From: Pseudomonadota bacterium | Lineage (GTDB): Bacteria > Pseudomonadota > Alphaproteobacteria > Rhizobiales > JACESI01 | Direction of reading: 5' to 3' | DNA: 40,719 nucleotides | Assembly: GCA_039181265.1 (NCBI GenBank) | Contig: JBCDCU010000003.1 | Coordinates: 1-40,719, forward strand | Shown: positions 1,968-12,566 of the stretch, in pieces | Layout: each line of letters opens with the position of its first letter | Numbering within the stretch: position 1 is the first letter of the stretch | Made by a program: the position numbers and the translations under genes | Notes under the pieces: generated by a model | Seen by the model: the letters and a program-made list of their open reading frames with translations, nothing else | What the model was told of the DNA's origin: nothing | Database searches by the model: none

Positions 1968-3002
1968 ATGCTGAAGACGATCGCTGCCAAGACAGCTCTT
2001 GCCCTAACCCTGACACTAACGGGAGCCGCGACGGGCTTTGTCGCCACCGCGCAGGCGGAAACGAAAGTGCCGTTCGCGCTTGACTGGAAATTCGAAGGGC
2101 CGAGCGCGCCGTATTTCGTTGCAATCGACAAGGGCTATTTCAAAGAAGCTGGGCTTTCTGTTGATGTAACAGCGGGCAAGGGCTCGCTGGACGCGATCCC
2201 GAAAGTGGCAACCGGTGCTTTTCCGGTGGGCTTCGCCGACATCAATTCGCTTGTGAAATTCCTCGACCAGAATCCGGGCGCGCCGGTAACCGCCGTGATG
2301 ATGGTCTACGACAAGCCGCCGTTCGCCATCGTTGGCCGCAAATCCCTCGGCGTTTCCGCACCGAAGGATCTTGAGGGCCGCACCCTTGGCGCACCGCCGC
2401 CCGATGGTGCCTGGGCCCAATTCAAGGCTTTTGCTGCTTCCAACAATCTCGACACCGCCAAGATCAAGGTTGAGCCAGTCGGCTTCCCGACCCGCGAGCC
2501 GCTTCTCGCGGAAGGAAAAGTCGATGCCGTCACCGGCTTTTCGTTCTCGAGCTTTTTGAACCTTGTCCGGATCGGCGTTCCGGAAGATGACATTTCAACG
2601 ATCCTGATGGCGGATCACGGTTTGAAGCTGTACGGAAACGCAATCATCGTGAACACGGATTATGCGAAAGAAAATCCGGCGGTGATCACTGGTTTTCTTT
2701 CAGGGATCGCGAAGGGTTGGAAGGATGCGATTGCCGATCCGGAAGGAGCCGTGACGTCTCTCATCAAGCGTAACCCGGCGGCAGACGCAGCGCTCGAAAC
2801 CCGCCGTTTGCAGCTTGCGATCGATGCCAATGTCATGACCGATTACGTTAAGGAAAACGGAATGGGTGCTATCGATCCGGCCCGGTTTGCAGAGGCGCTT
2901 GAGCAGCTTAAAACCAATTTCGAGCTCCAGAACGAACCGGACGCAAGCCTTTACTTCGATGCGTCTTACCTGCCCGAAGACGGCAGCCTGAAGATCAACT
3001 GA
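1968..3002 (+). CDS. ABC transporter substrate-binding protein, NMT1/THI5 (SsuA-like) family
   Basis: Signal peptide ending AQA, then FALDWKFEGPSAPYFVAIDKGYF, KDLEGRTLG and LYGNAII. Followed by ATPase and permease genes. Confidence 0.9.
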   Translation: MLKTIAAKTALALTLTLTGAATGFVATAQAETKVPFALDWKFEGPSAPYFVAIDKGYFKEAGLSVDVTAGKGSLDAIPKVATGAFPVGFADINSLVKFLDQNPGAPVTAVMMVYDKPPFAIVGRKSLGVSAPKDLEGRTLGAPPPDGAWAQFKAFAASNNLDTAKIKVEPVGFPTREPLLAEGKVDAVTGFSFSSFLNLVRIGVPEDDISTILMADHGLKLYGNAIIVNTDYAKENPAVITGFLSGIAKGWKDAIADPEGAVTSLIKRNPAADAALETRRLQLAIDANVMTDYVKENGMGAIDPARFAEALEQLKTNFELQNEPDASLYFDASYLPEDGSLKIN

Positions 3003-3010
3003 TCCTTGTT

Positions 3011-3033
3011 CCTCCCCCGATAGTCGGGGGAGG
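3011..3033 (+). other. Intercistronic GC-rich stem-loop (mRNA stabiliser or partial terminator)
   Basis: CCTCCCCCGA-TAG-TCGGGGGAGG is a perfect 10-bp stem just after the binding-protein stop, with no U tract. Confidence 0.6.
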
Positions 3034-3073
3034 GCCATTCTTCCCCGCAAGCCTTCCTTCGAGAGAGCCGCCT

Positions 3074-3871
3074 TTGACGGCCTATCCTTTCCAGATCGAA
3101 CTTGAAAGCGTCACCCATGCCTATAAGTCGACAGGGGGACGGTTGCCCGTTTTGAATGATCTCTCGCTTCAAATGGAGCCCGGATCCTTCACGGCTATTG
3201 TCGGGCCGTCAGGCTGCGGAAAGTCGACGCTGACCCGTCTTGTCGCTGGCCTGATGATCCCGGATGAGGGTGTCGTGAAACTTCACGGCGAGCGGGTCGT
3301 CTCGCCGCGCTCAACCGTCGGCATGGCGTTCCAGAACCCGGTTCTTCTGGAATGGCGCACGATCCTCAACAATGTCCTTCTGCCGCTTGAAATCGTGCCG
3401 AATGATCTCAGCAAAAAGGAGCAGGAAGCGCGGGGCCGTGAGCTCCTCGCGATGGTTGGGCTGGAGGGCTTTGAAGATAAGAAACCGTCGGAACTCTCTG
3501 GAGGTATGCGCCAGCGCGCTTCGCTTTGCCGGGCGCTTGTTCACCGGCCTGAAGTCCTGATCCTTGATGAACCCTTCGGCGCGCTTGATGCCTTCACCCG
3601 CGAAGATCTCTGGCAGATCATGCATGATATCCGCATGCGCGAGAAGGTGACGACGCTCTTGATCACCCATGATCTGCGCGAATGCGTGTTTCTGGCAGAT
3701 GAGATCGTGGTGTTGTCGGGCCGTCCGGCAACGCGCCAGTTCAGTGCGCCGTCGCCGCTTCCGGAAGACAGAACGATTGAAGATCTCTACGCGCCGGAGC
3801 CGACGCAGCTTCTTGCCGAGCTAAGGCGCCAGATCCAGATTGCGCAAGGCCGTAAGGCGGAAGACGCGTGA
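3074..3871 (+). CDS. ABC transporter ATP-binding protein (NitT/TauT family)
   Basis: GPSGCGKST, LSGGMRQR, LILDEPFGALD and ITHD motifs. Confidence 0.95.
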   Translation: MTAYPFQIELESVTHAYKSTGGRLPVLNDLSLQMEPGSFTAIVGPSGCGKSTLTRLVAGLMIPDEGVVKLHGERVVSPRSTVGMAFQNPVLLEWRTILNNVLLPLEIVPNDLSKKEQEARGRELLAMVGLEGFEDKKPSELSGGMRQRASLCRALVHRPEVLILDEPFGALDAFTREDLWQIMHDIRMREKVTTLLITHDLRECVFLADEIVVLSGRPATRQFSAPSPLPEDRTIEDLYAPEPTQLLAELRRQIQIAQGRKAEDA

Positions 3872-3886
3872 GGGAAAGGGGATGCA

Positions 3887-4657
3887 ATGAACCGTAACCT
3901 CGCGCGCCAGATCGGCATTCCGCTTGCTGCAATCGCTCTCTTCCTCGCCTTTTGGGAATGGCTCGTCTGGTTCAATGGCTGGCCGAATTTCAAAATGGCC
4001 TCACCGTCCGATATCGGCCCCGCCTTCTGGAAGTTCCGCTATCTGTTTCTCGAGTATGGCTGGCAGACATTGTGGCGCACGGTTGCCGGTCTGATGATCG
4101 CGATTTTTGTCGGTGTTCTTCTCGGCATGATGATGGGCTTTTCAAGGACCATCCGCGAGGGGCTCTATCCGCTTCTGGTTGGTTTCAACGCGATCCCGAA
4201 GGCGACGGTGGTGCCAGTGATTGCGCTCATCTTCGTTGGGCTTGACGATTTCAACACGGTTCTGATGGCGTTCATGATTTCGTTCTTCCCGATTGCGGTT
4301 TCGGTCTCAATCGGGTTGTCGACGCTTGAACCGGAATACAGCGATATCCTGCGCTCGCTCGGGGCAAGCCGTTGGACAATTTTCTGGAAGATTGCACTTC
4401 CCAAAACCCTGCCGGAATTCTTCGGAGCGCTGAAAGTCGCCGTCACGCTTGCCTTCATCGGGACCAATCTCGTCGAGATCATCCAACCACATGGAAGGGG
4501 CCTTGTCTTCCTGTTCGATAGCGGTAAGATCAGCGCCGATTATCCGCTGATGTTCGCCGTTCTGATTGCGCTCGCCGTCCTTGGCATCTTTCTCTTCTAC
4601 ATTGTCGTTCTTCTTGAAAAGATCTTCGCCGGTTGGGCCGAGCGGGCGGCGCAGTAA
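3887..4657 (+). CDS. ABC transporter permease (NitT/TauT family)
   Basis: Multiple hydrophobic helices, EAA-like loop DILRSLGASRWTIFWKIALP, and operon position. Confidence 0.93.
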   Translation: MNRNLARQIGIPLAAIALFLAFWEWLVWFNGWPNFKMASPSDIGPAFWKFRYLFLEYGWQTLWRTVAGLMIAIFVGVLLGMMMGFSRTIREGLYPLLVGFNAIPKATVVPVIALIFVGLDDFNTVLMAFMISFFPIAVSVSIGLSTLEPEYSDILRSLGASRWTIFWKIALPKTLPEFFGALKVAVTLAFIGTNLVEIIQPHGRGLVFLFDSGKISADYPLMFAVLIALAVLGIFLFYIVVLLEKIFAGWAERAAQ

Positions 4658-4667
4658 GAGTGCCCAC

Positions 4668-5564
4668 CTATCCAGTCATGCGCATGGCCAAGAACCCGTC
4701 CGCCTCCCGGACGCTGCTACAAATGCTTGAGAGCTTGCGCGGTTCCTCATAGGGCCACGGCCGGCCGCGATGCATGACGGCGCGCTGGTCCCACATCAAA
4801 ACATCGCCGACTTGCCATTGGTGTGAATAGGTAAAGCTAGGCTCGGTGCAAGAGGCGATGAGCTCCGATAAGAGCAATTCGCTTTCGGCCTCGTCATAGC
4901 CGTCAATCCGGAAGGCGTGGCTTGCAATGTATAGCGCTTCGCGTCCGTTCACCGGGTTTTTCCAGATGGCGTTCCAGTGCTGCTCCGGCCATTTGTGAAA
5001 CATCGGCAGGCGCGCAAGCTCTTCGGAGATCTGCTTTCGCGAATGGCTCAAATGGTGCCAGATGCCGCGGCCCCGGATCTTCGCTTTCATCTCCTCCGGC
5101 ATGGCAGCCCAGGCAGCGCGGGTCGAGGCAAGTTCTGTGGCGCCGCCCGATGACGGCACGATCCGGGCTGTCGCGACATTGACGAGCGCCGGCACTGGCA
5201 GAAACGTGCTGTCGATGTGCCAAAGGAAATTCGACTTGAGGTTGAGCGTGTGGAGATCGAAGGCATCGGTCACGCTGCCGTCTTCTTTGATATTGGAGAC
5301 TTCCGGAACTTTGAAAGCTTCGCCCGGTTTGCGCACATCAGCTTCGCGGTCTTCGATCGGGCCGAAGAAGGAATTGAGCCGGATATGATCGGCGTCGGTA
5401 AGGCCCTGGCCTTTAAAGAGGAGCGCAGAATGTTCCTCGAAAAGAGCGCGGATCGGCTGGAAGTCATTCGCGGTTCTTATTTTGGTGAGATCGACATCGT
5501 GGACCTCGACGCCGAAGCAATCGATGAGGGGTGTGGTTTTCAGGCTCTGATTGAGGTCAGTCAT
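4668..5564 (-). CDS. TauD/TfdA-family Fe(II)/2-oxoglutarate-dependent dioxygenase
   Basis: FGVEVHDVDL N-terminus, HxD in WHIDSTF, NPVNGREALY, and WQVGDVLMWDQRAVMHRG followed by Arg. Confidence 0.92.
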   Translation of the reverse strand: MTDLNQSLKTTPLIDCFGVEVHDVDLTKIRTANDFQPIRALFEEHSALLFKGQGLTDADHIRLNSFFGPIEDREADVRKPGEAFKVPEVSNIKEDGSVTDAFDLHTLNLKSNFLWHIDSTFLPVPALVNVATARIVPSSGGATELASTRAAWAAMPEEMKAKIRGRGIWHHLSHSRKQISEELARLPMFHKWPEQHWNAIWKNPVNGREALYIASHAFRIDGYDEAESELLLSELIASCTEPSFTYSHQWQVGDVLMWDQRAVMHRGRPWPYEEPRKLSSICSSVREADGFLAMRMTG

Positions 5565-5732: not shown

Positions 5733-6173
5733 ATGTCATTCAGCCTCTCATATACGTTCCGAACCACCACCATCATCCTCGCCATGATCATTTTGGTGGC
5801 AGGGGCAAGAGCAGACGGAAGTCCACCGACCTGCGAAGACTGGCAGGGCGAGTGGCAGGAAACCAAGATCTTCTTCGGGCTCAGCAAGAGCAGCAGAGAA
5901 GCGATTTCACGCCGCGCGGTCGATGCCTTCGTGCAAGAGGAGATCGTCAAAGCTTTTCCCGATGGTTTCACGCTTGTTGAAACCACCGGCTACTGGAGGG
6001 GAGACGAGAGTTCAGAGACGTTTTATGAAAATGGCCTGATGCTCGTTCTGCTTCATCCGAAGACGATCGAAAGCGACGGCAAGATCGACGCTTTGGCGAC
6101 AGCCTTTCGCGAGCGGTTCGAGCAACAATCGGTTTTGATTGCGACGCAACCCAGCAGCGTCCGGAGCTGCTGA
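5733..6173 (+). CDS. DUF3574-family exported protein
   Basis: Hydrophobic signal-like N-terminus, then TKIFFGLS, AFPDGFTLVETTGYWRG and FRERFEQQSVL, a pattern typical of DUF3574. Start moved from 5649 to ATG 5733. Confidence 0.8.
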   Translation: MSFSLSYTFRTTTIILAMIILVAGARADGSPPTCEDWQGEWQETKIFFGLSKSSREAISRRAVDAFVQEEIVKAFPDGFTLVETTGYWRGDESSETFYENGLMLVLLHPKTIESDGKIDALATAFRERFEQQSVLIATQPSSVRSC

Positions 6174-6281
6174 CGGTCCCATTAGTCCAACCGCTTCCCA
6201 CAATCCTGGCACCTATAGGCTTGCCACGGATAAGAAACGCGGCACAGAATAGGGAGGGCTATTTTCGGGGGCGAGCGGCCA

Positions 6282-7535
6282 ATGAACCTGACAGAAGACG
6301 AAAAGGCGATCCTTTCCGGGACACTGGGCAACAATGGTGACCGAATGGCGATGGAACTCGTCGTCGAAACAGCCCGTATGCTTGGTGCGGAGCGGCTCGT
6401 TGAGATCCATTCAAGCCATATTGACGGCTGTCTGTATCACGGCGATTCCGGCACGCTTTATTGCGAGAGACTCGCCGAAAACGGTGCGCGGGTGAAGGTG
6501 CCAGCCACCACCAATGTCGGTGCGCTTAATCTCTTAAAACCTGATCAATGCCGCCTTCCGCCAAATGAGCGCAAAATGGCGTCCCGCCTGATGATGGCGC
6601 ATGTTCAGATGGGCTGCACGGCGAGCTGGACCTGTGCACCCTATCAGGCAGGCGCACGGCCGGCCCTTGGTGAGCAGGTGGCCTGGGGAGAGTCCAATGC
6701 AGTCGCCTTTGTGAACACGGTGCTTGGTGCAAGGACCAATCGCTATGGCGATTTTCTCGATATTGCCTGCGCGATCTCTGCCCGCGCGCCCTATGCCGGT
6801 CTCCACAAGCCGGAAAACCGTCATGCGAAGCTTGTTTTCGATGTGACGGGCCTATCTGAAACCCTGCGTCGGCAGAGCGCATTCTATCCGGTTCTCGGCG
6901 CAATCATCGGTCGTCATGCGGGCGAAACGGTCCCGGCGATTATGGGTATCCCGCCCGGCGTAACCGAAGACCAATTAAAAGCATTCTGTGCTGCAACCGC
7001 CTCAACCGGCGCGTTGGCTTTGACCCATATTGTCGGCGTCACACCTGAAGCGCCGGATCTTGAAACGGCACTCGGCGGAGCCGAGCCGGAAGAAATGGTC
7101 ACGATCACACGGGAGATGGTGATCGAGGAACGCAATCGTTTGAGCCTTGCCGATGCAGGGCCGATTGACAGCGTGGCGCTCGGAAGTCCGCATTTCAGCA
7201 CCGCGGAATGCCGGGACTTGCTCAACCTTGCGGATGGTCAGCCTTTCAGGGTTCCGGTCTATGTCTGCCTTGGTCGGCATACGCTGGATGAACTGGAGTC
7301 CGATGGCGACGACAAGGCGCTCAGAGATCTCGGTGTTGAATTCGTGGTCGATACCTGCGTGGTTGTGACCCCGATCCTTCCGGACGAGCCCGGTGTGATG
7401 ATGACGAATTCGGCCAAGTTCGCCCATTACGCGACCGGCAATACCGGGCATATGCCTGTCTTCGGCACGCTCTCAGATTGCGTCAAGAGTGCCCAGGCGG
7501 GTCACGTCGTCTGGGATCGGACAGTCTGGGCATGA
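6282..7535 (+). CDS. Aconitase X catalytic (large) subunit, DUF521; possible cis-3-hydroxy-L-proline dehydratase type
   Basis: MNLTEDEKAIL start, HIDGCLYHG, WTCAPY, WGESNAVAFVNTVLGARTNR, GVTPEA, LGSPH, DTC and MTNSAKFAHY. Confidence 0.92.
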   Translation: MNLTEDEKAILSGTLGNNGDRMAMELVVETARMLGAERLVEIHSSHIDGCLYHGDSGTLYCERLAENGARVKVPATTNVGALNLLKPDQCRLPPNERKMASRLMMAHVQMGCTASWTCAPYQAGARPALGEQVAWGESNAVAFVNTVLGARTNRYGDFLDIACAISARAPYAGLHKPENRHAKLVFDVTGLSETLRRQSAFYPVLGAIIGRHAGETVPAIMGIPPGVTEDQLKAFCAATASTGALALTHIVGVTPEAPDLETALGGAEPEEMVTITREMVIEERNRLSLADAGPIDSVALGSPHFSTAECRDLLNLADGQPFRVPVYVCLGRHTLDELESDGDDKALRDLGVEFVVDTCVVVTPILPDEPGVMMTNSAKFAHYATGNTGHMPVFGTLSDCVKSAQAGHVVWDRTVWA

Positions 7536-8380
7536 GCTTCCAATCGGACGTCCTGATCGAAGGCGAGGCGGAAGGAGAAGTCCTTTTCCTCGAGGCTCCG
7601 ATCAGTTTCTGGGGTGGGGTAGATCCTGAAACGTCGAAGATAACGCTGATTGGACATCCGCAATATGGCGAGACGATTGCCGGGAAAATGCTCGTGATCC
7701 CGGATCTCATCGGCTCAAGTAGCTCGTCGGCAGTGATGTTGGAGCTTCTTCATCGAAAAATGGCACCGAAAGCTCTTATCCTTGGTATGCGCGATGCGAT
7801 CCTGCCGGTCGGGGTCGTCGCTGCACGGCAAATGAACTGGTCGACGATCCCGGTGGTTGTTCTTCGCGATCCGCCGTTCAAGACGGGAGATATCATATCG
7901 ATTTCCCGCACTGGGCTTATCGAGAAAACTCTCGAAATCAGGCTGGCGGAAGACGATGATGCGGAAGCGGTCAGAGCCTGTGCGGAAGAAGCGTTCCAGC
8001 AATATGTCGACGCGATCGGCAAAAAGCCCGCCCCAATGGTCGCCGACTTCGATGCGTTCATCGATGCCGGCTGTGTCCATGTCGCGGCGGACGCTAATGG
8101 TGACGTGATCGGCTACATCATCTTCTTCCCGCTTGAGGGTGACATGTTTCTTGAAAATGTCGCGGTGAAGCGTTCCGCGGCGGGAAAGGGGGTCGGAAAA
8201 CGGCTCATTTCCCTATGCGAGAAAGAGGCGCGGCTCTCTGGCTGCGATGCGGTCAAACTCTATACGAATGAGAAGATGACCGGGAACATTTCGCTATATC
8301 CGCAATTGGGATATCGCGAGACAGACCGCCGGACAGAAGACGGTTTTAACCGCGTCTTCTTCGAGAAAGAGCTTCGGTAA
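7532..8380 (+). CDS. Aconitase X swivel (small) subunit DUF126 fused to a C-terminal GNAT acetyltransferase
   Basis: ATG 7532 overlaps the upstream TGA (ATGA). PISFWGGVDP and GSSSSS mark DUF126. From ~7937, IRLAEDDD, FLENVAV, GKGVGKRLI, LYTNEKMTGNISLYPQLGY mark a GNAT. Confidence 0.88.
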   Translation: MSFQSDVLIEGEAEGEVLFLEAPISFWGGVDPETSKITLIGHPQYGETIAGKMLVIPDLIGSSSSSAVMLELLHRKMAPKALILGMRDAILPVGVVAARQMNWSTIPVVVLRDPPFKTGDIISISRTGLIEKTLEIRLAEDDDAEAVRACAEEAFQQYVDAIGKKPAPMVADFDAFIDAGCVHVAADANGDVIGYIIFFPLEGDMFLENVAVKRSAAGKGVGKRLISLCEKEARLSGCDAVKLYTNEKMTGNISLYPQLGYRETDRRTEDGFNRVFFEKELR

Positions 8381-8446: not shown

Positions 8447-9346
8447 TTAGCAGGCTCTTCCATCATTCGTCTCAAAAGATTCGCATAATCCCTCGATCCA
8501 GTCTGCAAGGCGTTTTACGTTCGGCGCCAGCGTCCCATCTGCCCGGTAGATCAGACCGTATTCGGAGCCATCTGCATCGAAACCACAGGGAGCGATGAGC
8601 CGACCGGATGAAACATCGTCGAGGGCGATAACGCGAGGCGAAAGGCCGACACCAAGGCCCGCGCAAGCTGCCTCGACTACGAGGAAATGGTGATCCATTT
8701 CGCGCATTTCACGAGGGCGTGGTGCAGTTGGATTGGCGGAGAGCCAGTCATCCCATGCATCTGGGCGGGTTTTTGAAACGAGCGCAACATAGTCCTCCGC
8801 TGCGAAACGCTCGCGCATCGTCTCAACCATGACGGGACCGACGGTCTCCGGGAAAAGCCGATTAACAGCCCATTTGGCGTCCAAAGAAAAATCGAGTCGT
8901 CGGAGCGCAAGGAACCCGTGATCGCGCGCCGTGTCGATTGCTCCGCCACCCACCGAGAGATGGACCGCAATGTCGGGATTAACTGTTTCGAACTGGCTAA
9001 GGCGGGGGATCAGCCAACGCATGGCGACGGACCGTTCGCAGGAAAGAAGTATTGTGTTGCTGTCCTCTTGCGCGGTTTCTCGGATGGAAGAAATCGTGCG
9101 CTCAAGATCGTCAAAACTGCGGCGGCAGGCATCGCGTAGTGCTTCCCCGGCTGATGTGAGCCTGATGCCGCGTCCTGACCGCTCCAGCAGCGGCGTTCCC
9201 ACAGTCTTCGCAAGGCGCGAAGCGCGTCGGCTGACGGCGGCGTGAGTAAGGTTCAGTTCTTCTGCCGCAGAACGCACCGATCCCATGCGTGCCGTTACCT
9301 CAAAGGCGCGCAGATCATCGAGATAAGGAAGGTCGGATCGTTTCAT
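8447..9346 (-). CDS. LysR-family transcriptional regulator (GcvA-like)
   Basis: LDDLRAFEVTARMGSVRSAAEELNLTHAAVSR HTH and WLIPRL. The true start is likely ATG 9346 (MKRSDL), not 9637. Divergent from the DUF1537 operon. Confidence 0.93.
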   Translation of the reverse strand: MKRSDLPYLDDLRAFEVTARMGSVRSAAEELNLTHAAVSRRASRLAKTVGTPLLERSGRGIRLTSAGEALRDACRRSFDDLERTISSIRETAQEDSNTILLSCERSVAMRWLIPRLSQFETVNPDIAVHLSVGGGAIDTARDHGFLALRRLDFSLDAKWAVNRLFPETVGPVMVETMRERFAAEDYVALVSKTRPDAWDDWLSANPTAPRPREMREMDHHFLVVEAACAGLGVGLSPRVIALDDVSSGRLIAPCGFDADGSEYGLIYRADGTLAPNVKRLADWIEGLCESFETNDGRAC

Positions 9347-9375
9347 TGGTAATGAAATATCACCAGTACTGGTGA
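9347..9375. promoter_or_regulatory. LysR-type operator in divergent intergenic region
   Basis: TGGTAA-N7-TCACCA dyad (T-N11-A, 9350-9362) overlaps the perfect palindrome TCACCAGTACTGGTGA (9360-9375). Confidence 0.65.
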
Positions 9376-9421
9376 GAAACAATTGCTTGTTCGATGACGC
9401 TTCTACGCCGATTATCCTGCT

Positions 9422-10471
9422 ATGACGTCTCCTCCAAGCCCTTTTGTCGGTATCCTCGCCGATGATTTGACGAGCGCCGCAGATGGTGCGGCTCCCTTCG
9501 TGAGAAAGGGGCTTCAGGCGACGGTTTCCAGGCGGCATGTTCCGCAGTCTCGCGAAGCTGATGTTATCGCAGTCGATATGGCGACGCGCTCGATGAAGGA
9601 GAACGACGCTGCCGCCGGAGCAAGGGAAACCGCACAAAAATTGGCGGGCGCGCAGATAGTCTACAAGACAGTCGACTCAACCCTGCGTGGGCATGTCTTT
9701 GCCGAGATCAATGCGGTCATCGCGGGGAGCCAACGCAGAAGGCTGGTGTTTGCCCCGGCATTTCCCGAGGCAGGTCGGATCACACGCGATGGTTTTCAAT
9801 TCGTCGATGGCGTCCCGGTATCTGAAAGCCGCTACGGATCCGATCCGGTTCATCCGGCACGAACATCGAGGCTCTCCGACCTTGTGCCGCCTTCCGCACA
9901 AGACGCGCTCCAGATTAACGCGGAAACTCAGGATGAGTTGAATGCAAAGGTAGCCCGGATTCCCGATCCGCAAGAGGTCATCTGGGTTGGATCACCAGGC
10001 CTGGCCATTGCTTTGGCAGGACTGGTGGCCTCGACACCGGGTCGGTGCTCTGTGCCTAAGGTGAGCTCCGATATTCTGGTGGTTGTCGGCAGTATGAACG
10101 CTGTCAGCTCAGAACAGGCAAAGATGCTGGAAGACTAGACAGATGTCAGTGTTCTTCGCGTCCCCGCGGAACGTGCGGATCCCCGAGAAACACTTGCCGC
10201 GCTCACGGCTAAAGCCGTTTCGGCCCTGGAAACGGATCAATACGGAGCGATTATTGCGATGGGCGGTGATACGATGGACGCGATCCTCAATGCGATCGGT
10301 GTGAGAAGTTTCGATCTTACCGGAGAATTCGAGCCTGGATTTCCGGTTGGTCTTGCTGACTATAAAGGCGACCCGCTCGTCCTCGGTCTGAAAGCAGGCG
10401 GTTTCGGCTCCCCGGACAGTCTCCGACGGGCAGTCGATCATCTAACGCGTTCAAAGGAGTACGCTTCGTGA
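9422..10471 (+). pseudogene. Four-carbon acid sugar kinase (DUF1537/DtnK-like) interrupted by one in-frame TAG
   Basis: ILADDLTSAAD, YKTVDSTLRG and FAPAFP occur in the 5' part. After TAG at 10136-10138 the same frame stays open through GGDT and KAGGFG to TGA 10471, which overlaps the pdxA GTG. Confidence 0.85.
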
Positions 10472-11475
10472 CGCACGCTCCACTCGTCATCACCATGGGC
10501 GACCCGTCAGGGATCGGCCCGGAGATTATTGCCAAATCCTTTGCGGAAGGGCGTGCGCCGGGCTGTGTTGTGATAGGAAGCGCCTCTGTCATGCGCCAGG
10601 TAGTTGCGATGCTCGGCCTTGGATTGGAGGTCCGTGACATCCAATCGATAGAGGACGCGACATCGCCTGAAAACCAACGCGTTATTGAAGTCCTTCAGAC
10701 ATCAAAGAAAGGCGCAGAGTTTCCTGTCGGCGAAGTGTCTGCGGAAAGCGGGAAGGCCGCGTTCGACGCTATCGTCAAAGGGATCGAGCTTGCGAAATCC
10801 GGAAGAGCGTCTGGCGTCGTTACAGCCCCGATCCACAAAGAAGCCTTGGCTGCTGCGGGGATCGGCTTTCCGGGACACACCGAAATGCTCGCCGAATTTG
10901 GTGGTGCGCAAAGCGTTGCGATGATGCTTGCGAATGACGAGATCCGCACGGTGCTTGTCACGATCCATGTCAGTCTGCGCGACGCTATAGACCACGCCGA
11001 TTTTAAGGCTCAGATGTCGGCGATCCGCCTTGCGGACAAAGCCTGTCGCGATCTTGGTATTGATGCGCCCCGCGTGGCGGTCGCGGGCCTCAACCCCCAT
11101 GCGGGTGAGGGCGGTCTCTTCGGCCAGGAGGAAATTGAGATTATTACACCTGCCATTGAGGCCGCGCGCGCGGAAGGTATCGATGCGTCCGGCCCGTGGC
11201 CAGGCGACACGGTCTTCATGGCGGCACGAAGGGGGAAATTCGATGTCGTCGTAGCGCAATATCATGATCAGGGCCTCATTCCCGTGAAATATCTCGGCGT
11301 GGAAAAGGGCGTCAATGTCACCCTCGGTCTTCCCTTCGTGCGTACCTCACCGGATCATGGGACTGCGTTCGATATCGCCGGGAAGGGGATTTCCGATCCG
11401 GCAAGCCTGTCGACCGCGATTGATTACGCCCGCCGCTTGATCGCCAGACGGCACCAACCAGAGGAGGTTTTCTGA
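10468..11475 (+). CDS. pdxA: 4-hydroxythreonine-4-phosphate dehydrogenase family (PdxA2-type, likely tetronate-4-phosphate dehydrogenase)
   Basis: TMGDPSGIGPE, TAPIHK, PGHTE, GLNPHAGE, YHDQG and RTSPDHGTAFDIAG. Its position next to a DUF1537 kinase indicates the PdxA2 subgroup. Confidence 0.95.
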   Translation: MTHAPLVITMGDPSGIGPEIIAKSFAEGRAPGCVVIGSASVMRQVVAMLGLGLEVRDIQSIEDATSPENQRVIEVLQTSKKGAEFPVGEVSAESGKAAFDAIVKGIELAKSGRASGVVTAPIHKEALAAAGIGFPGHTEMLAEFGGAQSVAMMLANDEIRTVLVTIHVSLRDAIDHADFKAQMSAIRLADKACRDLGIDAPRVAVAGLNPHAGEGGLFGQEEIEIITPAIEAARAEGIDASGPWPGDTVFMAARRGKFDVVVAQYHDQGLIPVKYLGVEKGVNVTLGLPFVRTSPDHGTAFDIAGKGISDPASLSTAIDYARRLIARRHQPEEVF

Positions 11476-12533
11476 TGGGGCTTCGCTTCATCTTCATGCT
11501 CACCCGTGCCGATAAAACGGTGCCTGACGCGGCGAGCCATCTCGAAACGGCCCTGTCCCTCGGCGTGCGCCATATCGGTTTTAAGGATATCGGCCTGCCG
11601 GTTTCAGAATTGAAGGCATTGAATGAGGCGATCAAGGCAAAGGGCGCCACATCCTACCTCGAAGTTGTAAGCCGTGACCGGGAAAGCGAAGTGACATCCG
11701 CAAGGGCCGCCGTCGAGGTTGGCGTCGATATCCTCCTCGGCGGAACGGAAGTCGAGGATGTCCTGCCGATCATTAGAGGGACAGGGCTCGAATATTACCC
11801 ATTCCCCGGCCGGATCGTCGGTCATCCGAGCGTTCTCGAAGGATCCGTCGATGACATCGCTGAAAGCGCGCGCAGTCTTGCGGCCTACGAAGGCGTGACC
11901 GGGCTCGATCTTCTGGCTTACCGGTCACCGCTACCGGATATTCCGGCGATGATCAGCGCTGTCTGTGAAGCCGCAGGAAAACCAGTGATTGTCGCAGGCT
12001 CCATCGCTGAACCCGACCGCATTGCGGCGGTCCGAGATGCCGGAGCGGCTGGCTTTACCATCGGGACGGCTGCGCTCAACGGTGATTATCCGGCTGATAG
12101 TGAGGATCTTGAAACGCAGCTCTCTGCGATTGTGCGCGATGTGGCCGACCTCAACGGGCATCTGTCGCCCTTTGGCAAGAAGAGCCTTGATCGCGCGTTT
12201 GCAGCCTTTGACGACACCTGGTCGCCGCGCGTTGCCGGTCAGATCAATGCAATGCAGATTAAGCTCGCCAAATTTGAGGGAGCTTTCACCTGGCATTTTC
12301 ACGAGCGCGAGGATGAACTCTTTCTCGTTCATCGCGGACGGCTTTTGATGAAGTTTCGCGACCGCGAAGAGGTGGTGGAAGAGGGCGAGTTCATCGTCGT
12401 GCCGCATGGCGTCGAACATTGCCCTGTGGCTCTGACGGAGACCTGCGAGGTTGTGTTGTTGGAACCAGCAACGACCGTCAACACGGGAACAGCCGAGGAC
12501 GATCGCAAAGTCTTGGATCTCGCATCTGTTTGA
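11475..12533 (+). CDS. Uncharacterised phosphate-binding TIM-barrel-like domain fused to a C-terminal cupin domain
   Basis: Alternating beta/alpha N-domain (GFKDIG, YLEVVS, GLDLLAY, IVAGSI, FTIGTA). From ~12177 a cupin (WSPRVAG, WHFHEREDELF, GEFIVVPHGVEHCP). Translationally coupled to pdxA (TGATG). Confidence 0.75.
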   Translation: MGLRFIFMLTRADKTVPDAASHLETALSLGVRHIGFKDIGLPVSELKALNEAIKAKGATSYLEVVSRDRESEVTSARAAVEVGVDILLGGTEVEDVLPIIRGTGLEYYPFPGRIVGHPSVLEGSVDDIAESARSLAAYEGVTGLDLLAYRSPLPDIPAMISAVCEAAGKPVIVAGSIAEPDRIAAVRDAGAAGFTIGTAALNGDYPADSEDLETQLSAIVRDVADLNGHLSPFGKKSLDRAFAAFDDTWSPRVAGQINAMQIKLAKFEGAFTWHFHEREDELFLVHRGRLLMKFRDREEVVEEGEFIVVPHGVEHCPVALTETCEVVLLEPATTVNTGTAEDDRKVLDLASV

Positions 12534-12541
12534 ATCAGAAC

Positions 12542-12566
12542 GCGGCGGTGCTCTTAACACCGCCGC
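12542..12566. terminator. Hairpin between convergent genes
   Basis: GCGGCGGTG-ctcttaa-CACCGCCGC, a 9-bp perfect stem. Confidence 0.6.

Follow-up and report, generated by a model that had tools for sequence, protein, structure and literature searches.

A predicted phosphate-binding barrel fused to a cupin accompanies PdxA-family genes in LysR-controlled operons of Proteobacteria

Introduction

The D-threonate/D-erythronate pathway that Zhang and co-workers published in PNAS in 2016 is said to contain no third enzyme, and its dehydrogenase PdxA2 reportedly makes dihydroxyacetone phosphate from 4-phosphothreonate. The part of PMC9997740 that deals with these families reports that DUF1537 kinases encoded beside pdxA2 recycle 4-hydroxythreonine, and that PdxA2 also catalyses the PdxA reaction. 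Here we describe a locus on contig JBCDCU010000003.1 (assembly GCA_039181265.1, a Pseudomonadota bacterium), within a stretch of 40,719 nucleotides that was analysed as a whole and is called the window below, in which a DUF1537 kinase-family gene and a PdxA-family gene are followed by a third gene encoding a predicted phosphate-binding barrel fused to a cupin domain. What we found is a real enzyme family without an assigned reaction and not a complete new pathway.

Results

A LysR-controlled operon of three translationally coupled genes

The locus lies in a marine metagenome bin that is 70% complete in 508 contigs, and it consists of a LysR-controlled operon of three translationally coupled genes, namely a short-form DUF1537 kinase, a PdxA-family dehydrogenase and a barrel-cupin fusion. 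Its features are as follows.

8447..9346, minus strand: LysR-family regulator (GcvA-like); HTH_1 65.4 bits and LysR_substrate 68.6 bits
9347..9389, no strand given: putative operator; half-sites and palindrome in a layout recurring in related loci
9422..10471, plus strand: short-form DUF1537 kinase-family gene, interrupted; SBD_N and NBD_C matches
10468..11475, plus strand: PdxA-family NAD-dependent dehydrogenase (decarboxylating), intact; PF04166 and TIGR00557
11475..12533, plus strand: barrel-cupin fusion gene, 352 aa; open reading frame, Pfam and model
11475..12179, plus strand: barrel domain, aa 1-235; AlphaFold2 model and structure comparison
12180..12533, plus strand: cupin domain, aa 236-352; Cupin_2 match
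12542..12566, no strand given: G+C-rich hairpin of 11 pairs (8 G-C); terminator-like scan, consensus match only

As had been claimed in an initial annotation made from the letters of the window alone, the three plus-strand genes overlap: the kinase and pdxA genes share a GTGA at 10468-10471, and pdxA and the fusion gene share one base within a TGATG at 11473-11477. The regulator gene, whose start codon is at 9344-9346, is divergent from the operon, and it shows what is expected of a LysR-type system, namely both domains, the divergent orientation and an inverted-repeat operator; orthologues with 49-76% identity occupy the same position in related loci. The name GcvA-like given by the initial annotation agrees with the best NCBIfam match, which is GcvA, but the score of 160.6 bits stays below the cut-off of 288.

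The operator, which had also been pointed out, is composed of the half-sites GGTAAT (9348-9353) and ATCACC (9359-9364), separated by 5 bases, and of a third half-site, GGTGAG (9371-9376), and it ends in a conserved AAAC-ATTGCTTG tail. The right arm of the recurring GGTGAT-N5-ATCACC repeat and the third half-site together form a perfect 8+8 palindrome at 9360-9375, whereas the left arm in the window reads GGTAAT in place of GGTGAT. In the related loci compared, this layout directly adjoins the LysR start codon, even where pdxA replaces the kinase as the first gene. At the other end, the hairpin is situated between the fusion gene and a convergent SnoaL-like gene and likely marks the end of the operon; the scanned region held 5 terminator-like sites against 3.7 expected in shuffles. 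There is no transporter gene within the operon, in agreement with the initial annotation, the nearest being an ABC system at 1968-4657, about 4 kb upstream, which adjoins a TauD gene.

The third gene encodes a new barrel subfamily fused to a cupin

The third gene had been described as encoding a phosphate-binding triose-phosphate-isomerase-type barrel of an undescribed kind. The barrel is borne out by a confident structural model, and its novelty by our searches of families, solved structures and literature; the C-terminal cupin, to which the barrel is fused, had been overlooked. Residues 1-235 matched no Pfam or NCBIfam family above the cut-off. Below threshold, His_biosynth, GGGP synthase, NanE and TrpA matched one segment only, PF00977 (HisA/HisF) reaching 19.8 against a cut-off of 23.6. 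When 54 barrels of the wider family were compared with Pfam at E 0.001, all matches were weak (His_biosynth in 13, NMO in 6, NanE in 4 and two singletons), with 4.3e-5 as the best E-value for PF00977. A profile of the family, compared with solved chains, gave matches that were confined to the beta7-beta8 phosphate-binding segment, with PriA/HisA at E 1e-10 followed by NMO, hexulose-phosphate synthase (HPS; 9lj9_B, E 6.3e-5), TrpA and NanE, and beyond this segment we found no solved relative of the barrel by sequence. Nor did we find a description of the barrel or of the fusion in the full-text literature, the coverage of which leaves out most subscription journals.

An AlphaFold2 model of the barrel built on the family alignment had a predicted local distance difference test score (pLDDT) of 95.9 and a predicted template-modelling score (pTM) of 0.92, and it forms a (beta/alpha)8 barrel. 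Comparison with 48,161 chains by VIA-align gave as best match 9lj9_A, a hexulose-phosphate synthase/isomerase, with Z 21.8 and a root mean square deviation of 2.3 over 203 residues at 18% identity, which is about 2.6 Z units above the next group of PdxJ (Z 19.2), pyruvate kinase, KDPG aldolases, thiamin-phosphate synthase, ribulose-phosphate epimerase (RPE), KGPDC (1kv8, Z 18.1) and OMP decarboxylase; a second HPS, 3ajx, had Z 18.9. The nearest folds (HPS, PdxJ, KDPG aldolase, RPE and KGPDC) are found at Z 18-22 and many members of the ribulose-phosphate-binding barrels at Z 16-22, while Foldseek listed TrpA, pyruvate kinase, RPE and KDPG aldolase with E-values of about 1e-7 to 1e-8. The model also has what defines a ribulose-phosphate-binding barrel, that is, eight strands and a predicted phosphate site on the beta7 and beta8 loops. 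In the model, the fold class is clear and the subfamily new, and the reaction is not fixed by the fold. A role as an alternative, PdxJ-like pyridoxine-phosphate synthase was considered and rejected, with pdxJ present in the window's genome and in its sister genome (G001) and many barrels scoring like PdxJ.

Across the whole family M8, T10, D13, T15, G35, K37, G40, E63, V65, G89, P109, G112, P118, G123, G143, R150, A174, G175, T195 and G197 are conserved, which amounts to one lysine, two acids and one arginine besides the phosphate loops. The GFKD, IVAGSI and FTIGTA motifs singled out by the initial annotation are indeed present in the translation of the fusion protein and are invariant in 20 orthologues. 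Strand beta3 reads YLEVVS and carries E63 as its sole conserved charged residue, which does not place the barrel in the HPS/KGPDC/OMP decarboxylase group.

These structural results bear on the possibility that the barrel is a KGPDC-like beta-keto-acid decarboxylase, which would act on 3-oxo-4-phosphobutanoate made by PdxA and lead to a triose phosphate enediolate. HPS and KGPDC are among its best structural neighbours, the barrel is tightly coupled to PdxA and in some proteins fused with it, and D38 and E63, on beta2 and beta3 near K37, could hold a metal in a site that we presume to resemble the active site of the HPS/KGPDC group. Yet the OMPdecase family of Pfam gave no match to the barrel at E 0.01, the stand-alone barrels described below occur among glycerol-phosphate-type genes with no carboxylate evident, and fusions of the barrel to a methylglyoxal synthase domain and to a dehydratase would go unexplained. 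On balance we regard a decarboxylase as improbable.

The cupin domain is recognized by Cupin_2 (PF07883) at residues 270-329 with 41.4 bits, above the cut-off of 27.2. Among solved chains it is closest to 3d82 (E 1.9e-23) and 2i45 (E 1.7e-9), aligned over about 90 residues, and the names given by their depositors ('Cupin 2, conserved barrel domain protein' and 'Hypothetical protein') reveal no function. A separate cupin of 122 aa is encoded elsewhere in the window's genome (C36:8564-8875, L002) and in G001 (C26:24309-24617, L010); these stand-alone cupins are 36-38% identical to the C-terminal domain of the fusion, the copy of the window's genome being at 38%.

The fusion gene is linked to pdxA in proteobacterial loci

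The barrel family comprises 801 representatives at the 50% identity level, and the fused form was found in 4961 proteins at E <=0.001 among 8000 scored candidates. The best 120 fused proteins are 68-95% identical to that of the window and 333-364 aa long, and they are named 'cupin domain-containing protein' or 'mannose-6-phosphate isomerase-like'; the copy of G001 is 95% identical. Among 41 genomes of the order, that of the window included, 8 had any match, and the barrel part was confined to the window's genome, G001 and G036.

To describe the surroundings of the fused form, we used 80 proteobacterial loci searched by tblastn with the proteins of the window, with the loci having enough flanking sequence as denominators. 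In 50 of 78 loci a full pdxA immediately precedes the fusion gene (49 identified by script, and L071, where pdxA overlaps the start of the fusion gene), and 3 further loci have only pdxA fragments there. Kinase and pdxA occur together in 29/74, pdxA without a trace of a kinase in 18/74, and pdxA with kinase remnants only in two (L039 and L061); a similar LysR gene is present in 37/72 loci, and none of LysR, kinase and pdxA in 22/72. The co-occurrence on which the initial annotation relied therefore holds for pdxA, for which in-frame PdxA-barrel fusions and plasmid-borne modules, described below, add to the 50 of 78 loci, and is weaker for the kinase (29/74). These data support a link to PdxA that is far above chance expectation in proteobacterial loci.

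In L034 and L039, both of Bradyrhizobium, the DNA between LysR and pdxA retains the first codons of a kinase gene and in L039 also its last part, so that, as read from these remnants, the kinase has been removed by internal deletion and is not merely absent. In one Bosea locus (L066, 543-2725), pdxA is missing from its usual place, and the kinase frame (386 aa) extends as far as the start codon region of the fusion gene.

On a quick IQ-TREE tree of the fusion gene with 79 rows, from which two of the 80 loci were dropped for an open frame of less than 300 aa, the kinase-plus-pdxA, pdxA-only and 'none' contexts are interleaved, and the branches with strong support require the kinase-plus-pdxA state to have changed at least 7 times and the 'none' state at least 5 times. 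The nearest rows to the window, L014 and L017, have pdxA and the fusion gene and no kinase. The tree also mixes families and even classes, a Halopseudomonas row, for example, standing within a Kiloniella group, and this disagreement with taxonomy points to horizontal transfer of an accessory trait. Specifically, the fusion of a Halopseudomonas bin (L068) is nested in the Kiloniella group, as compared with L047, L056, L058, L072 and L075, and a Janthinobacterium copy pairs at near identity with one from Acetobacteraceae; such pairings across classes suggest recent transfer or contamination of bins. In summary, LysR, pdxA and the barrel form the stable core of the module, the kinase and the cupin are optional, and loss of the kinase is recurrent.

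The PdxA-family gene and the possibility of damage control

The second gene belongs to the PdxA family, with 362.8 bits for PF04166 (cut-off 27) and 389.9 for TIGR00557 (cut-off 290.35). The D-threonate-4-phosphate dehydrogenase model (PdxA2, NF002891) gave 313.4, which does not reach its cut-off of 583. It is the only PdxA-family gene that we found in the window's genome. In G001, which is 95% complete, the two PdxA matches are the halves of the operon's own pdxA at two contig ends (C192 and C53; L175 and L173), and pdxJ was found in both genomes (L176 and L177). Judged by gene content, the LysR-controlled pdxA may also serve vitamin B6 synthesis in the window's genus, unless a second copy has not been assembled. 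All five of the complete or near-complete carriers of the operon that we examined have a separate housekeeping pdxA, with 2-4 PdxA genes each, while 3 of 5 genomes examined with a lone fusion gene have a single PdxA gene. Complex prediction for PdxA and the barrel gave a score of 0.00 against a mark of 0.32 with controls that did not fold, an outcome that speaks neither for nor against binding.

From the lack of a transporter, the initial annotation had raised the possibility of metabolite damage control. In this case, the fusion protein would clear a phosphorylated by-product that arises within the cell from vitamin B6 or pentose-phosphate metabolism, for instance 4-phosphoerythronate or surplus amino-ketone phosphate, with PdxA as the usual helper and the kinase as an occasional salvage add-on. 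The fusion gene does stand alone among unrelated genes in 22/72 loci, the kinase has been lost repeatedly, no transporter is part of the operon, and the genomes with a lone fusion gene and a single PdxA gene fit as well; moreover, as far as the cited part of PMC3010111 goes, PdxA oxidises 4-phosphoerythronate at C-3, if slowly. A LysR of its own and a conserved operator are, however, found in inducible catabolic operons, the barrel part is patchy among relatives (3 of 41 genomes of the order), and the conflict between tree and taxonomy points to a transferred accessory trait. An inducible regulator and a patchy, transfer-prone distribution thus speak against a housekeeping role, and we consider damage control unlikely.

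The kinase gene is interrupted in this genome

The initial annotation had listed a DUF1537 kinase gene and had overlooked an in-frame TAG at 10136-10138, which interrupts its frame (9422-10471) and leaves 238 aa as the largest open piece. The GGDT and KAGGFG motifs of the nucleotide domain, as aligned to solved DUF1537 proteins, are downstream of the TAG. In Pfam, the first piece matched SBD_N at residues 10-172 with 128.3 bits (cut-off 25), and the second matched NBD_C with 50.8 bits (cut-off 28.3), covering only positions 90-168 of the 168 of the profile. Read through the stop, the kinase has about 349 aa as against 413-464 aa in the solved DUF1537 proteins, and about 55 residues that connect the two domains in the solved chains are absent, a short form which is common to the orthologues. 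Because the open kinases of related loci have similar lengths (about 341-386 aa when counting starts at the first aligned residue), a length of about 350 aa is normal for this kinase subfamily.

At the position of the TAG the frame is open in 29 of the 30 related loci that match both pieces, the exception being L064, in which LysR, kinase and pdxA are all fragmented, and the intact kinase of G001, 80-88% identical, has an isoleucine there. The stop is hence best read as a change of the window's own lineage. A Logan contig of run X1, an independent assembly, had 0 differences over 9949-10366, including the TAG, and since X1 is the probable source sample, this agreement excludes a slip of the assembler and not a rare variant; runs X2 and X3 had no coverage of the stop codon, and contigs cannot reveal minority alleles. 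We conclude that, as judged from its reading frame, the kinase is inactivated by a nonsense codon in this genome, with pdxA and the fusion gene intact. With the kinase dead, the operon would not be able to phosphorylate an imported compound such as an external acid sugar.

The stop codon, repeated in the second assembly of the probable source run, could be taken to mean that the operon as a whole is decaying in this genome and that nothing functional is left, as may be the case in L064 with its three genes in pieces. But pdxA and the fusion gene are intact, and the latter is 95% identical to the copy of the sister genome; the tree neighbours L014 and L017 retain both genes without a kinase; and neither the window's genome nor G001 yielded a PdxA-family gene other than that of the operon, with pdxJ in both. 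A decaying operon is thus the reading to which we give the least weight, and we hold it to be very unlikely.

Barrels in other architectures and as stand-alone proteins

The barrel is also encoded without a fused cupin. Plasmids of Rhizobium leguminosarum (p3) and Rhizobium sp. SRDI969 carry LysR, a kinase of 403 aa, pdxA and a barrel of 242 aa, followed by a BhcC-like aldolase, RidA and an FAD amine oxidoreductase. Plasmids of Roseateles and Gemmobacter have the order LysR, kinase, pdxA and barrel, with barrels of 232 and 226 aa, and a Gluconobacter plasmid has LysR, pdxA, a barrel of 226 aa and a separate cupin gene of 120 aa. PdxA and the barrel are fused in frame in P0124 and in the partial P0127 and P0256, and P0177 consists of N-terminal pieces of PdxA and barrel only and is possibly an artefact. 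Other fusion partners are a methylglyoxal synthase domain in P0125, which scored above the cut-off for NF003559 (145 vs 84) and below it for TIGR00160 (117 vs 147), and a partial such domain in P0191, as well as a serine/threonine dehydratase in P0138 (426 bits, cut-off 331).

Around the fused form, at least one amino-type neighbour was present in 16/80 loci, 15 of which also have pdxA. In L050 the barrel gene is followed by a threonine aldolase of the low-specificity type (411 bits, cut-off 312). In L074 and L077 (3470-7998), pdxA and the fusion gene are immediately preceded, in the same orientation, by genes for a BhcC-like aldolase, for an FAD oxidoreductase and for an iminosuccinate-reductase-type protein, the last of which matches the BhcD model with 560 bits against a cut-off of 500.

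Stand-alone barrels, which have about 224 aa and share 35-55% identity with the domain of the window, carry names from Streptomyces, Arthrobacter and other Actinobacteria. Their neighbours were counted in 80 metagenome loci, many on short contigs, with the barrel called in 65.

GntR/UTRA regulator: 41/80 loci
HAD-IIA phosphatase: 37/80 loci
glycerol-1-phosphate-dehydrogenase-like protein: 36/80 loci
xylulokinase-like FGGY kinase (366 bits, cut-off 380): 30/80 loci
GlpD-like FAD dehydrogenase: 21/80 loci
amino-acid/ethanolamine-type permeases: 14, 8 and 7 of 80 loci, one reaching the ethanolamine permease cut-off
class-III aminotransferase-like protein: 10/80 loci
D-2-hydroxyacid dehydrogenase: 7/80 loci
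DhaK/DhaL: 4/80 loci

None of the 80 loci had pdxA, DUF1537 or a similar LysR at E 1e-4. The rare co-occurrence with DUF1537 and pdxA that would have spoken against the initial annotation was thus not seen for the proteobacterial forms and was seen for the stand-alone actinobacterial barrels. In the actinobacterial-type clusters (L091-L170; for example L113 and L118, at about 6001-6672), the gene set comprises a permease, an FGGY kinase, a glycerol-1-phosphate-dehydrogenase-like protein, a HAD-IIA phosphatase, the barrel and GntR, and then a GlpD-like dehydrogenase or a class-III aminotransferase. We know of no described pathway with this gene set, no literature search having been aimed at the cluster. 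An epimerase that would act upstream of PdxA on 4-phosphoerythronate was also considered for the barrel and rejected, since such a reaction is at odds with the actinobacterial context and since proton abstraction beside a carboxylate is not known to be typical of this kind of barrel.

In the records, barrels are annotated as '4-hydroxythreonine-4-phosphate dehydrogenase' or 'hypothetical protein'. The former name is given to L178 6980-7708, L179 6986-7684, L180 5986-6666 and L182 5986-6714, and we judge it wrong because these proteins have no PdxA domain; the ESM Atlas clusters of the barrel likewise carry only automatic names copied from PdxA. By the look of the fusions and gene orders, the misnomer seems to have been borrowed from PdxA-barrel fusions or from the neighbouring gene.

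Several of these neighbours would suit an aldolase with dihydroxyacetone phosphate (or the corresponding amino compound) and a small aldehyde, for instance glycolaldehyde, as its substrates; the operon and the actinobacterial cluster would in that case serve two-carbon assimilation or cleavage. Threonine aldolases, which connect 4-hydroxythreonine with glycine and glycolaldehyde, are encoded nearby, the xylulokinase-like FGGY kinase and the HAD-IIA phosphatase flank the stand-alone barrels, and a methylglyoxal synthase fusion exists; in addition, the folds of KDPG, KDPGal and deoxyribose-phosphate aldolases are found at Z 16-19, and K37 is a single lysine conserved throughout the family. Against an aldolase are the facts that no aldolase family model of Pfam or NCBIfam matches the barrel and that no aldehyde-producing step is encoded in the operon of the window; K37, on beta2, is presumably also not in the usual position of the lysine of class I aldolases of this fold. 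We therefore give an aldolase little credence.

Neighbouring genes in the window

At 1968-5564 an NMT1/THI5-like binding protein, an ABC ATPase and a permease are encoded beside a TauD-family dioxygenase on the opposite strand, a set which, by its gene content, looks like one for sulfonate- or taurine-type uptake and oxidation. At 6282-8380 there is an aconitase-X pair, in which the AcnX large subunit of 417 aa is followed by a small subunit, listed with 300 aa, that joins a swivel domain and a GNAT acetyltransferase domain, the two listed frames overlapping by 58 bases; its best NCBIfam match is cis-3-hydroxy-L-proline dehydratase, below the cut-off.

Discussion

PdxA, the glycerol-phosphate-type dehydrogenases and methylglyoxal synthase all make, use or bind a three-carbon 2-oxo-propyl phosphate, from which we infer the class of substrate of the barrel. 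Tentatively, and well short of certainty, we favour the possibility that the barrel enolises the three-carbon keto-phosphate of PdxA, most likely 3-amino-2-oxopropyl phosphate, and thereby yields triose phosphate and ammonia. In this mechanism, the barrel would take over the keto-phosphate released by the PdxA reaction, the preferred substrate being 3-amino-2-oxopropyl phosphate from 4-phosphohydroxythreonine and the alternative one dihydroxyacetone phosphate from 4-phosphothreonate or 4-phosphoerythronate. The glycine loops of beta7 and beta8 would hold the phosphate while the set of K37, E63, D13 and R150 enolises the carbon adjacent to the carbonyl, and the amino-ketone would be isomerised to the imine of glyceraldehyde 3-phosphate, the hydrolysis of which would give triose phosphate and ammonia, in effect an amino version of the triose-phosphate isomerase or Amadori reaction. 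A helper role, in assisting or finishing this step, would fall to the cupin, which can be fused, separate or absent. An operon with an intact kinase would convert 4-hydroxythreonine (or a tetronate) to triose phosphate and CO2, with ammonia in addition in the amino case; where the kinase is absent, the PdxA-barrel pair would be limited to substrates already phosphorylated inside the cell.

The preference for the amino-ketone comes from the amino-compound genes that recur around the barrel, which include an ethanolamine-type permease, class-III aminotransferase-like lyases, RidA, D- and L-type threonine aldolases, BhcD, FAD amine oxidoreductases and the dehydratase fusion. Furthermore, dihydroxyacetone phosphate needs no special enzyme, and the amino-ketone does, unless it is fed to PdxJ. 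The four-carbon acid-sugar catabolism put forward by the initial annotation was not borne out, as neighbours and fusion partners point at least equally to amino compounds; judged by gene context, the link to tetronates is loose, and 4-hydroxythreonine or amino alcohols are at least as well indicated.

Several observations weigh against our favoured function. The substrate is assigned from neighbours and fusions only, and for the PdxA of the window the NCBIfam scores do not separate an amino from a hydroxy substrate. The amino-type neighbours are mostly from soil lineages, and none adjoins the operon of the window. The 22 loci with none of LysR, kinase and pdxA, of which the 19 that could be analysed have mutually unrelated neighbours, and the complete lack of pdxA and DUF1537 beside the stand-alone barrels suggest that the barrel family does not depend on PdxA. 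HPS and KGPDC, the nearest folds, fit a decarboxylase or an aldolase as well as an isomerase, and the model of the full-length fusion is middling (pLDDT 78.9, pTM 0.66), for which reason we make no statement on the cooperation of barrel and cupin. Finally, the best match of the kinase, that of its first piece to the D-threonate kinase model (DtnK), had 115.1 bits against a cut-off of 450, and the same piece had 66.4 bits against 350 for the 3-oxo-tetronate kinase model; a broken and short query depresses such scores, and these activities are not thereby excluded in intact orthologues.

In a more far-reaching form, about which we are doubtful, the barrel would be the enzyme so far lacking for the removal of 3-amino-2-oxopropyl phosphate and, as a counterpart of triose-phosphate isomerase for an amino substrate, would close new routes. 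LtaE is described as interconverting 4-hydroxythreonine and glycine plus glycolaldehyde. If the far-reaching form were true, a threonine-type aldolase, the DUF1537 kinase, PdxA and the barrel would together close a so far unknown route from glycolaldehyde and glycine via 4-hydroxythreonine to triose phosphate, CO2 and ammonia, and the barrel with the glycerol-phosphate-type dehydrogenases would close an actinobacterial amino-propanediol route.

The barrel family is sizeable, has no Pfam or NCBIfam model and is carried in the records under an empty name or that of a neighbour. Of all members of the module, which combines two families whose pathways had been regarded as finished with two enzymes, the barrel is conserved best. 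Knowing the reaction of the barrel would correct many annotations and would show the fate of PdxA's reactive amino-ketone or keto-phosphate outside vitamin B6 synthesis, and it would possibly reveal a 4-hydroxythreonine, tetronate or two-carbon route in marine and soil Proteobacteria.

Comparison with known systems

With HisA, PriA and TrpF, which isomerise amino-sugar phosphates in Amadori-type reactions, the barrel shares the only significant profile matches to solved structures (those to PriA), but this likeness is limited to the phosphate-binding quarter, and PF00977 remains below its cut-off. HPS and KGPDC, phosphate-binding barrels that work through enediolates, are the best structural matches and share the beta7-beta8 phosphate site by profile. 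In contrast to them, the barrel is at 14-18% identity, has no Pfam or NCBIfam match to their families and has its conserved residues K37 on beta2 and E63 on beta3; the acid-lysine-acid signature of beta3, which we take to mark the HPS/KGPDC group, is not present, and many other barrels have scores within 3 Z units. From the stand-alone cupins 3d82 and 2i45, the cupin domain of the window differs in being fused to a barrel or, in other loci, encoded beside one.

The recycling of 4-hydroxythreonine into vitamin B6 by DUF1537 and PdxA2 (Thiaville et al. 2016, cited in PMC9997740) employs the same two families; the amino-compound neighbours of the barrel loci fit 4-hydroxythreonine, and the operon's pdxA is the only one found in the window's genus. 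That recycling, however, reportedly ends with the PdxA product passing to PdxJ, whereas the loci described here encode one more conserved enzyme after PdxA, and many carriers possess a separate housekeeping pdxA besides (5/5 examined). The DUF1537 kinase and PdxA2 module for D-threonate and D-erythronate (Zhang et al. 2016, cited in PMC9997740) is alike in its adjacent, translationally coupled genes and local regulator. It differs in that the kinase of the window is short (about 349 aa) and broken and that both enzymes score below the cut-offs of its models (DtnK, 115 vs 450; D-threonate-4-phosphate dehydrogenase, 313 vs 583); moreover, the locus described here has an additional barrel-cupin gene, which across loci is the most conserved member of the module, whereas the kinase is optional.

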